Origin: Candidatus Methanomethylicia archaeon
GTDB taxonomy: Archaea; Thermoproteota; Methanomethylicia; Nezhaarchaeales; B40-G2
DNA length: 25,049 bases
Direction of reading: 5' to 3'
Assembly: GCA_029259155.1 (NCBI GenBank)
Contig: JAPDJI010000046.1
Span: 1-25,049 of the forward strand
A model generated the notes under the pieces. That model searched no databases. It was not told where the DNA came from and saw only the letters and a list, made by a program, of their open reading frames with translations. Both the position numbers and the translations under genes were made by a program. Positions within the stretch are counted from its first letter, which is position 1, and each line of letters starts with the position of its first letter. Positions 3,489-20,505 of this stretch are shown in pieces.

Positions 3489-5024
3489 ATGGAGGAGCGG
3501 TTTAGAGCAATCTCAGCTGCCGACTTCTTCTACCGTAACCGTGAGATGGCTGGTTTTGATAACCCAGTTAGGAGCACCTACACCATCTGTAGAGAACTCC
3601 TCGAAAACAGTATGGATGCTTGTGAAAGTGGAGGATACCTCCCCGACATATACATGAGGCTTAGGTACGTGGATGGAGAAGCCTTAGAGATAAAGGTAGA
3701 AGACAACGGTAAAGGGGTTCCCAGAAGATACATTAAGCGAGCTTTCGGCCAAGTGCTCTTCGGGTCTAAGTATACGCTACGACAGACGCGCGGGATCTTT
3801 GGGCTAGGCGGAAAGATGGCGGTGCTCTATGGACAAATCACCACTAACAGTCCAGTACATGTAATCTCCAGCACAGGAGGTATGGAGAGGTACTCGTACA
3901 AGATAATGGTCGATATTGAGCGCAACGAGCCCATCACTAAAGGTGAGAGCATAGAGAGGAACCATGGTCAGTGGCACGGAACCGTCGTGAAGCTCAAGTT
4001 CCAAGGAGACTACGCAAGAGCTAGGGCAAAGATAGTGGACTATTTGAGGCATGTAGCGATCATAGAGCCTTACTCGCAAATAATGTTCGTGGACCCTGAC
4101 GGCGTATTCTACTTCTTTAGGAGAAAAGCTGAGCGCATGCCCAGACCCCCGTTAGAGGTCCTTCCCCACCCTCAAGGAGTAGACGTAGAGACCTTGAGGA
4201 GGCTTATCGAACGTTTCGGCCAAGGATCCCTCATCGACTTCTTGGTGGAGAGCTTCCATAGAGTAGGTAGACGCATAGCCTTGAAGTTCCTGAGGAAAAC
4301 CAAGCTAGACCCTGAAATGGATGTAAGCGAGCTAGCTAAGAAGGAAGAGCTCATACCTAAGCTGGTTAAAGCCATGAACGAGTTCGACGGCTGGCTACCT
4401 CCTGACCCATCCTGCCTCTCGCCCATAGGCTCAGACCTATTAGAGATAGGTATAAGGAAGGAGCTTAGGCCAGAGTTCGTTGCTGTAGTTCAACGCAAAC
4501 CTTCAACATATGGCGGCCACCCCTTCATAGTTGAGGTAGCCATAGCCTACGGTGGGGGCGTACATGCACCAAGCCAAGGAGAAGTCAACTTATACAGGTA
4601 CGCCAATAAGATACCTCTATTGTATGACGTTCACAACGACGTTTCGATGAAGGTGATAAGGAAGATTAAGTGGTGGCGGTATAAGATAAGCCCAGAATCG
4701 ATGCCCATAGCCTTCTTCATACACGTATGCTCCACGAAAATACCGTACAAAACGGTGGGTAAGGAGTACATAGCTGATAGGCCAGAGGTAGAGTACGAGG
4801 TAGAGTGGGGGTTAAAGGAAGCAGCTAGGAAACTTAAGCTCTACCTATCCAAGAAGAGGAGGGAAGAAAGCCTCAAGCGTAGGAGAGCGGCGTTGCTGAA
4901 ATACCTCCCTCACATAGCCAGGTTTGCCACTGAACTTTGCGGTGAAAAGAAGATACCAGACTACGAAAAGCTTGTAGCTAAGGAGGATCTGAAGGTGAAA
5001 ACTGCCCTCCAAAGACTAGCTTAA
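3489..5024 (+). CDS. top6B: DNA topoisomerase VI subunit B
   Basis: ISAADFFYRNREMAGFDNP; GHKL ATPase motifs ELLENSMDA, VEDNGKG, QTRGIFGLG; H2TH region; RYANKIPLLYD. Confidence 0.97.
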   Translation: MEERFRAISAADFFYRNREMAGFDNPVRSTYTICRELLENSMDACESGGYLPDIYMRLRYVDGEALEIKVEDNGKGVPRRYIKRAFGQVLFGSKYTLRQTRGIFGLGGKMAVLYGQITTNSPVHVISSTGGMERYSYKIMVDIERNEPITKGESIERNHGQWHGTVVKLKFQGDYARARAKIVDYLRHVAIIEPYSQIMFVDPDGVFYFFRRKAERMPRPPLEVLPHPQGVDVETLRRLIERFGQGSLIDFLVESFHRVGRRIALKFLRKTKLDPEMDVSELAKKEELIPKLVKAMNEFDGWLPPDPSCLSPIGSDLLEIGIRKELRPEFVAVVQRKPSTYGGHPFIVEVAIAYGGGVHAPSQGEVNLYRYANKIPLLYDVHNDVSMKVIRKIKWWRYKISPESMPIAFFIHVCSTKIPYKTVGKEYIADRPEVEYEVEWGLKEAARKLKLYLSKKRREESLKRRRAALLKYLPHIARFATELCGEKKIPDYEKLVAKEDLKVKTALQRLA

Positions 5025-5076
5025 CACAAAATGGTTTTAATCGACTGCTTCCTTAGCTAAAACCGGTAGGGCTAGT

Positions 5077-6162
5077 TTGACCAGGTATGATGCCGCCAGG
5101 AAGAATGTGTTGGAGAAGCTATCGGAGTTAGGTATGAACGTATACCTGCAAATGTATAGAGGAAGACTACCTAAGATCTACCTGCCTAGCCGCTCAACTT
5201 CCAACATAAAGTACGATGAGAGGCTTAAACAATACGTGTTGGGCAGCGAACACGTCGAGCGAAGCGCTGCCAACATAAGACATATCAAGTCCTTCACCCA
5301 GCTCATCTGGGTTTCATGGTTCGCCAGCCAGCTTATAAGAGAAGGCAAGTCATGTAGCTTACGAGATCTTTACTACACGAGCCTTAACTACCCTGAATTC
5401 AGGTTCAAAAACCAGAAGGAGTCGGACGACATCATCACCGACCTAGAAAGCATATTGGGTGTACCTCGCGAAGACTTCAAGATCTCTCCTGAAGAGCGAA
5501 GCTCCATCTTCGGTGACCTAACCATCGAGTACACTGTGCCCCCAAGCCATGCAGGTAGACGCGTAAACCTGCTCTCCGACCCTGACGGGAAGAACATAGG
5601 CATGTCCATAGCTACTGCCGAGTTCGTAGACTGCGGAGCCGAAATGGTCATAGTAATCGAGAAGGGAGCCATCTTCAGGAGATTCATAGAGGAAGGGGTG
5701 TACGAGAAGTTTAAGGCCATACTCATAGATAGCGCTGGACAAGCACCGCGGTTTACCCGCCTCCTCTTGAGGAGGCTTAAGGAGGAACTAGGGCTACCTA
5801 TCTACATCCTAACCGATGCAGATCCCTGGGGAATGCATATAGCTAATGTCATAATACATGGCTCAGCCAACGCCGCTCACATCAAAGGGCTCACCACCCC
5901 TGAAGCTAAATGGCTAGGCTTATGGGCCAGCGACCTCCAAAAATACCGTAAGCTACCCACGCTCCCTATGAGCGAGCGGGACCTTAAACGTCTACGCGAG
6001 CTACGTAAAGACCCTAGATACCAAGACTCCTTCTGGCAGAGCGAAATCGAAACCTTCCTCAAATTACAGCGCAAAGCAGAGCTTGAAAGCTTCAGCGCTC
6101 AAGGCCTCTCAGCCATAGTGGACAAATATCTACCAAGAAAGCTTAAGGAAGTCAGCGGCTAA
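5077..6162 (+). CDS. top6A: DNA topoisomerase VI subunit A
   Basis: SLRDLYY catalytic Tyr motif, TOPRIM IVIEK...TDADPWG, KAELESF; directly follows top6B. Confidence 0.97.
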   Translation: MTRYDAARKNVLEKLSELGMNVYLQMYRGRLPKIYLPSRSTSNIKYDERLKQYVLGSEHVERSAANIRHIKSFTQLIWVSWFASQLIREGKSCSLRDLYYTSLNYPEFRFKNQKESDDIITDLESILGVPREDFKISPEERSSIFGDLTIEYTVPPSHAGRRVNLLSDPDGKNIGMSIATAEFVDCGAEMVIVIEKGAIFRRFIEEGVYEKFKAILIDSAGQAPRFTRLLLRRLKEELGLPIYILTDADPWGMHIANVIIHGSANAAHIKGLTTPEAKWLGLWASDLQKYRKLPTLPMSERDLKRLRELRKDPRYQDSFWQSEIETFLKLQRKAELESFSAQGLSAIVDKYLPRKLKEVSG

Positions 6163-6264: not shown

Positions 6265-6351
6265 TGGGCCCGGTGGGATTTGAACCCACGACCACCCGGT
6301 CTCCCACACGGTTATGAGCCGGGCGCTCTAACCTTGCTGAGCTACGGGCCC
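6265..6351 (-). tRNA. tRNA-Ile2 (anticodon CAT) with 12-nt intron at 37/38 (6301-6312)
   Basis: GGGCCCG-TA-GCTC..GAGC-G-CCCGG-CTCATA[ACCGTGTGGGAG]A-CCGGG-TGGTC-GTGGG-TTCAAAT-CCCAC-CGGGCCC-A. The GGGCCCG acceptor matches archaeal Ile tRNAs better than Met; the Ile2 versus Met assignment is inferred. Confidence 0.9.
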
Positions 6352-12372: not shown

Positions 12373-12477
12373 GCCCCGGTAGCTCAGCTAGGCAGAGCAC
12401 CCGGCTGTTAACCGGGACCTCGAGGCTAACCAACCTCGAGGCGGGAATGGTCCCAGGTTCGAGGCCTGGCCGGGGCG
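12373..12477 (+). tRNA. tRNA-Asn(GTT) with 31-nt non-canonical intron (12417-12447, position about 43/44)
   Basis: GCCCCGG-TA-GCTC..GAGC-A-CCCGG-CTGTTAA-CCGGG[ACCTCGAGGCTAACCAACCTCGAGGCGGGAA]TGGTC-CCAGG-TTCGAGG-CCTGG-CCGGGGC-G; 74 nt after removal. Confidence 0.92.
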
Positions 12478-20130: not shown

Positions 20131-20505
20131 GGGGCGGTGGTGCCCCAGGAAGGTGGGTCGCCTCCCGCTAAGCTGTTTTAGTCAAGCGTTCTCAGCTCCG
20201 TAAACCCGTGAACGCTGACACCCAGCCTTAAGGCCGCTCCTTCGAGGACGCTGTTCAGCGCCTCTCCCGGGCCTAACCTGGTTCGACTGGTTCGGAGGCT
20301 TGGACCCCTCCTTCGAGGGGCTTGGCCTCCTATGCCAGCCCCACGGGGCGAAGCTTCATAGACGCTTCGACCGCACAGCTTAGCGTTCAGCTGACCGCCC
20401 TTCCCGGTTACTGGCCCCGCCATGACGACCGTTTGCGGCTCAAGGAGGCTTAAGCCTTCCTTGAGAGGGCAGGCCGAACTCCCCAGCCCTTACCACCACC
20501 GCCCC
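20131..20505 (-). ncRNA. ffs: Archaeal SRP (7S) RNA with a putative 23-nt BHB intron in helix 8 (20241-20263) and an extra Alu-domain hairpin (20439-20465)
   Basis: Helix 1 GGGGCGGTGGTG/CACCACCGCCCC; complementary helix 3 and 4 loops CGGCC/GGTCG; long helix 5 (e.g. CGCTAAGCTGT/ACAGCTTAGCG); helix 6 GCCCCTC-GAAG-GAGGGGT; helix 8 GGTT-AGG-CCC-GGGA-G[insert]GG-AGC-GGCC. Confidence 0.9.

Follow-up and report, generated by a model that had tools for sequence, protein, structure and literature searches.

The RNA found in the signal recognition particle (SRP) is universal and essential, and to our knowledge its sole earlier link to tRNA-type splicing is the gene, both permuted and circularised, that two Thermoproteus species have. 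The window analysed here, a stretch of 25,049 nucleotides from a Candidatus Methanomethylicia archaeon (assembly GCA_029259155.1, contig JAPDJI010000046.1, positions 1 to 25,049; genome G000), raises the question of whether an SRP RNA gene with its parts in the ordinary order can also be split by an intron of the tRNA type. An earlier note, made from the letters of the window, had placed such an intron at positions 20241-20263 of the minus strand, within the SRP54-binding helix 8, and the sequence and coordinates that it quoted were found there. The comparisons of sequences described below make it very probable that this is a colinear SRP RNA gene in which the tip of helix 8 is split by a 23-nt archaeal bulge-helix-bulge (BHB) intron.

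The SRP RNA gene was identified by a match to the Rfam model RF01857 (Archaea_SRP) at 20135-20498 on the minus strand, with a score of 125 bits (cut-off 96.5, E = 2.1e-28). The match extended over model positions 1-317 and the gene order was colinear with the model throughout, in agreement with what the note had claimed. The precursor as matched by Rfam is 364 nt long, and complementarity in helix 1 suggests that the transcript reaches a few bases beyond the match on both sides. At the apical loop of helix 8 the alignment contained 25 nt compared to 2 nt in the model. The 5' exon (20264..20498, minus strand) ends with the 5' strand of helix 8, the loop GGGA and a single G that opens the 3' strand, and is followed by the putative intron (20241..20263, minus strand), which reads AGGCGCTGAACAGCGTCCTCGAA. 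The 3' exon (20135..20240, minus strand) begins with GGAGC, in which the tip of helix 8 has its 3' strand and the SRP54 site its conserved AGC, and both the AGG and the AGC internal-loop letters of helix 8 are present in the gene.

Searched as a whole, the assembly (47 contigs, 94% complete) returned this one archaeal SRP RNA gene and no second copy; an intact second gene, which the note had named as an observation that would speak against the intron, was therefore not found in the assembly. The fragmentation and incompleteness of these 47 contigs are what would favor the insert being an artefact or part of a dead gene, that is, the product of an assembly error, of contaminating DNA, or a silent copy whose functional counterpart was left unassembled. 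Four further public DNA runs, which come from four studies, have contigs with the SRP RNA gene including the insert, one of them covering the whole gene, and neither an intron-less allele nor an exon-exon joint was seen in the contigs of these four runs, which as DNA are silent on splicing. The exons were well matched to the model, and a tRNA-Leu gene (ARAGORN) lies downstream of the SRP RNA gene with a tRNA gene likewise next in the relatives G002 and G003. Each of five other intron-bearing genomes that were checked also had a single SRP RNA gene. With this recurrence and synteny, an artefact or a dead gene is hardly credible.

The anatomy of the insert is that of a BHB motif. The exon strand CGGG (20269-20266, minus strand) pairs with the intron strand CUCG (20246-20243, minus strand) to give a central helix of 4 bp with one G.U pair in G000. 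This helix is flanked by a 5' bulge of A20265, G20264 and A20263 and a 3' bulge of A20242, A20241 and G20240 (AGA and AAG, respectively). The interior of the intron forms an inner hairpin, h' (20247..20262, minus strand), in which GGCGCU at 20262-20257 pairs with AGCGUC at 20252-20247 over 6 bp around the loop GAAC. When the interior of the intron was shuffled, a 6-bp inner helix arose in 0.2% of 5000 trials. Two strain variants kept the fold, a C>T change at 20261 (plus strand), which converts an inner-helix G.U pair to A-U, and a T>C change at 20254 (plus strand), which lies within the inner-hairpin loop. A reading of the bulges as a K-turn was considered and rejected, as the pairs adjacent to the bulges are Watson-Crick and covarying.

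If the cut falls behind the second nucleotide of each bulge, exactly the 23 nt at 20241-20263 are removed. The closed tetraloop of helix 8 arises only once these nucleotides are gone, and the helix 8 region then folds to the canonical tip with an energy of -19.4 kcal/mol.

Relatives with filled and empty sites were identified among species genomes, 15 in the window's order and 62 in its class. Within the class, SRP RNA genes longer than 335 nt occurred only in the window's family, f1, which has four species. Two of these, G002 and G003, carried 15-nt inserts at the same bond as G000 while G001 had no insert and reads AGGCCCGGGAGGGAGC, which is the exact joint predicted for the spliced RNA of G000. 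The exons of G001 and G000 were 85.9% identical, the closest of the four, and those of G002 and G003 were 85.7% identical. Screening 151 genomes of the phylum by gene length added three more long SRP RNA genes with inserts at this bond, of 30 nt in G161, 29 nt in G063 and 60 nt in G149. The intron-less genes of G100, from the genus of G149, and G086, from the family of G161 and G063, also read the predicted joint, and the contrast of full and empty sites is thus present in the window's family plus two other families. The regeneration of the helix 8 tip by excision, as foreseen in the note, therefore yields a sequence that occurs naturally in three relatives, and the presence/absence polymorphism that the note had proposed to look for was found with empty and filled sites at the same bond. 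The GGGA loop was evaluated as a possible mark of former introns and rejected, as 13 of 23 parsable intron-less genes have it, including the three empty-site relatives, with the remainder mostly from the sister family f3.

In total, at least 18 SRP RNA genes (17 distinct introns) were found with an insert of 15-60 nt at the identical bond, and all 18 inserts sit within full-length RF01857 matches. Within the window's phylum, at least 7 of 401 sampled genomes from four families carried the insert (G000, G002, G003, G063, G161, G149 and G357), including G161, whose contig has the public record title Bathyarchaeia. At least 10 of 400 genomes carried it in a second phylum, where the record titles are those of Asgard archaea (metagenome-assembled genomes of Jordarchaeum and Baldrarchaeota), and one further intron-bearing genome, G406, was among the listed public-genome matches. 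Six of the 18 came to light solely through their length, with no motif assumed, and had the same anatomy.

The remaining genes came from pattern scans, and the counts are lower bounds. The scan of public genomes was loose, as 113 of its 119 listed matches were chance matches, mostly in bacterial coding DNA. The scan of the window's phylum gave 45 matches, of which 38 were outside the seven counted and were either false or unexamined. Thirty-five of these were rejected as intron-less genes of f10 in which the 3' part of the pattern matched the downstream GGAGCATCC, a match in G080 was rejected as it was away from the SRP gene of that genome, and matches in G251 and G348 were left out of the count.

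Conservation across the 18 genes was concentrated at the putative splice sites. The 5' bulge was always A, G, then A and the 3' bulge was AA or AC, then G, while the inner helix h' ranged from 2 to 10 bp with unrelated sequences. The central helix had all four pairs in 16 of the 18 genes (15 of the 17 distinct introns), and 97.1% of its cells were paired in a 17-row alignment of distinct introns, the structure itself being derived from the same sequences. In that alignment 95.5% of cells were paired compared to 72.6% in shuffles, none of 500 of which reached the observed value, and 36-52% when the partners were slid. All four inner-helix pairs changed on both sides, with the first pair being G-C, U-A, C-G or A-U. 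The central helix varied only between G-C and G.U, with the intron strand CUCG replaced by CCCG or CUUG in relatives, and this is as expected because one of its strands is fixed exon.

The 113 listed chance matches of the public-genome scan served as a control. None combined a complementary central helix with 4 bp or more of inner helix; thirteen had a central helix, which is approximately the random expectation, and one of these added 2 bp or more of inner helix. Both the central and the inner helix were present in all six matches of the same pattern that were in an SRP context.

The machinery for removal of such an intron is encoded in the genome. Two open reading frames for the tRNA-splicing endonuclease EndA (183 and 209 aa) were found, each with the domains PF01974 and PF02778. 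The 183-aa protein matched solved tRNA-splicing endonuclease chains (E = 2.6e-53), the top ones of which we take to be crenarchaeal two-subunit enzymes, and the 209-aa paralogue appears from its sequence to be without the catalytic histidine. The ligase RtcB was present in a 490-aa open frame, and the protein partners of the RNA were represented by SRP19 (PF01922, 81.5 bits, 101-aa open frame) and SRP54 (PF02978, 114.5 bits, 447-aa open frame). The inserts at one bond, the covarying inner helix and the presence of EndA and RtcB support, at the level of genome comparison, the interpretation of the insert as an intron that the note had offered.

In the mechanism that we propose, the SRP RNA gene would be transcribed as a colinear precursor in which exon CGGG and intron CUCG form the 4-bp central helix, placing the splice sites in 3-nt bulges on opposite strands and four base pairs apart. 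An endonuclease of the heterotetramer type, composed of the catalytic EndA and its structural paralogue, would cut behind the second nucleotide of each bulge and RtcB would ligate the exons. The product would have a 3-bp stem and a GGGA tetraloop beside the SRP54-binding loops, a form that SRP19 and SRP54 could bind. We infer that this cleavage and ligation take place in the cell, and in several uncultured lineages, those with Asgard titles included, SRP biogenesis is probably dependent on EndA and RtcB.

Cleavage and ligation are separate steps, and the long helix 5 could hold the two halves of the RNA together. The precursor might then be cut at the BHB without the exons being rejoined, either to persist as two pieces held by helix 5 or to be turned over. 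This course is very unlikely, as RtcB is encoded, an unjoined tip would be without the closed tetraloop and the tip is continuous in intron-less relatives. In addition, the Thermoproteus ends at this same site are ligated, and unligated termini were judged problematic for function by Plagens et al. 2015 (PMC4731332).

Several observations weigh against excision of a BHB intron at this locus. The description of the insert in the note as having full BHB geometry was accurate for the central helix, the bulges and the 6-bp inner hairpin and too generous for the outer helix, which is weak, with 1 bp if the 3' bulge has 3 nt and 2 bp (CC/GG) if it has 2 nt. The best of the constrained folds allowed the final G of the 3' bulge to pair, leaving 2 nt. 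Only 1-2 Watson-Crick outer pairs precede the SRP54-binding loop, which is non-canonical, and the motif is therefore not a strict one and belongs to the relaxed kind accepted by two-subunit endonucleases (PMC4090602). One central-helix mismatch was present in each of G063 and G520 (3 of 4 pairs). Twelve of the 18 genes were found by patterns that fix exon letters and some bulge letters, with the first intron base fixed in the public-genome scan and the last intron bases fixed in the public-genome and second-phylum scans; conservation of the letters fixed by the patterns is therefore partly built in. The rule that the cut falls behind the second bulge nucleotide was derived from the canonical tRNA geometry described in PMC4090602, from general background and from the match to the empty site. 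Among the listed sequencing runs containing the gene, none was recorded as RNA. Finally, minimum-energy folding of the G000 precursor at 37 C did not yield the BHB, with -26.0 kcal/mol for the best BHB structure compared to -30.7 kcal/mol for an alternative in which GAG pairs with CUC, a pairing that the sequences of the relatives cannot form.

The stability of the unspliced region, which forms an extended hairpin at this same -30.7 kcal/mol, is also a reason to consider that helix 8 has been expanded and that the mature RNA retains the 23 nt, its helix 8 then being longer and bulged and ending in a new apical loop. Another hairpin specific to the lineage is present in the same gene and is probably kept as well. 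An expansion kept in the mature RNA fits poorly with inserts that range from 15 to 60 nt among close relatives with only the splice-site geometry constant and that are wholly missing in the sister species. The apical loops are not conserved, and retention would leave the GNRA-type loop shifted from the SRP54 site. The 3-4-3 spacing of bulges and helix has no known role beyond endonuclease recognition (PMC4090602). Retention is accordingly improbable, and a BHB intron remains the reading that we favor.

The other hairpin is located between helix 3 and helix 4 (20439..20465, minus strand), where relatives have a 4-nt linker and the Rfam alignment contained a 24-nt insert. Among the sequences compared (G000-G004), it was present in all four species of f1 with 7-11 bp and compensatory changes, and it probably stays in the mature SRP RNA. 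It was evaluated as a second intron and rejected, having neither the 3-nt bulges nor the 4-bp central helix. Other small hairpins between helix 3 and helix 4 were observed in G149 and G162.

The note had also anticipated that genes of this type may be missed or mis-scored by Rfam models, and this was only partly borne out. The intron-bearing gene of G002 (L033:501-855) scored 90.6 bits, below the gathering score of 96.5, and would be missed by standard annotation. The intron-bearing genes of G161 (166.5 bits) and G063 (163.7 bits) outscored the gene of their intron-less relative G086 (136.7 bits), which indicates that the intron alone costs little, and these natural comparisons showed no consistent effect of the intron on the score.

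Other irregularities in SRP RNA annotation were noted in the course of the searches. G028 and G038, from genus g10 of the same class (95% and 93% complete, respectively), had no SRP RNA match while three congeners have one, and in these two genomes the gene may have diverged, been rearranged or escaped assembly. In genus g37, seven of the eight sampled genomes (e.g. G091, G119 and G126) matched only approximately model positions 99-273, the S domain, at 70-81 bits, and the remaining RNA is therefore divergent or absent; the eighth genome, G070, had a full-length match of 83 bits.

Two tRNA genes in the window may also contain introns. A tRNA gene of 105 nt at 12373-12477 (plus strand), matched by Rfam and missed by ARAGORN, has an insert of approximately 32 nt in the variable region that is probably a non-canonical intron. 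As a likely case of splicing at an unusual position in the same window, it adds to the support for the intron in the SRP RNA gene. A tRNA-Met gene at 6265-6351 (minus strand) has, in its Rfam match, 13 bases in the anticodon loop compared to one in the model, and the extra bases are probably a canonical intron.

The position of the intron in SRP RNA links it to the permuted genes of Thermoproteus. In these genes the leader and trailer form a BHB, and the recombinant Thermoproteus tenax endonuclease cleaves the BHB at the helix 8 tip of the permuted SRP RNA (PMC4731332). Genus g58 had no colinear SRP RNA match in any of its five genomes in the phylum sample, and a permuted layout was found in three of them, at L164, L165 and L166 (G105, G171 and G177). 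These loci fit the published Thermoproteus description in having a leader of 23 nt with a TTAATA box 26 nt upstream of it. Their conserved RNA ends with ...CCGGGAG and starts with GGAGC, preceded by CCCCGAA (CCCCGAC in L165), and the break point is thus at the same bond as the intron in G000 with nearly the same flanks. The leaders resemble a relic of the helix 8 5' exon tip plus intron, and in one of them nine bases match the exon tip and the first intron base of all 18 introns. A 9-nt direct repeat extends across the cut in L164, being present in both leader and trailer, and hints at an origin by tandem duplication. The trailer of L165 contains C and D box-like motifs, as PMC4731332 reports for an adjacent sRNA. 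Two tandem SRP RNA matches of 165.9 and 119.5 bits were observed in G179 (G179:C44:3279-3591 and 4913-5230, plus strand), and a duplication of this type could be a source of a permuted gene.

An ancestor 'with simple BHB introns' was proposed in 2015 for the Thermoproteus gene (PMC4731332), and the form predicted for the window's gene, colinear and with a simple intron at that bond, would supply this ancestral state. The genomes compared here support well a predicted intron that recurs at a single site in two or more archaeal phyla and matches the predicted ancestor of the permuted gene. A further step, which we put forward tentatively as possible rather than probable, is that the tip intron is old, is tied to one site and was inherited and repeatedly lost in the window's phylum and the Asgard-titled lineages instead of being inserted many times, and that it was then the direct precursor of the permuted Thermoproteus gene through tandem duplication and trimming. 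The identical bond in all 18 genes, the relics in the leaders, the L164 repeat and the tandem genes of G179 hint at such a history. If it is true, SRP assembly in these lineages would be gated by the tRNA splicing machinery. Whatever their history, the introns would add a class of non-tRNA endonuclease substrates and offer a short natural substrate for the study of relaxed BHB recognition, and annotators are warned that SRP RNA genes can contain inserts.

Full-text searches of a largely open-access literature brought up no description of an intron inside a colinear SRP RNA gene. The literature that was found describes the permuted SRP RNA gene and circular forms of SRP RNA. The archaeal tRNA intron motif is described as a 4-bp helix between two 3-nt bulges with intron lengths of 11-129 nt, and as 'transplantable' and tolerated at many positions given a lenient two-subunit endonuclease that accepts relaxed variants (PMC4090602). 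The insert in SRP RNA resembles the non-canonical tRNA introns in its 4-bp helix, its two 3-nt bulges and a length inside this range. It differs from tRNA introns in its host and in its location, with all 18 at one position compared to the many positions used in tRNA. Like the BHB sites in rRNA and in the cbf5 pre-mRNA (PMC2738675), it would be a non-tRNA substrate of the same endonuclease and ligase, the host genes being different. The closest parallel is Thermoproteus, which has in common with the present gene a BHB at the helix 8 tip, the tRNA splicing endonuclease and a ligation attributed to RtcB (PMC4731332), features that are here predicted from sequence. The Thermoproteus motif arises by pairing of leader with trailer and gives a circular product, as described in PMC4731332, whereas in the window the gene is colinear, the motif forms in cis and encloses a short intron, and a linear product would be expected unless a separate step closes it at helix 1.
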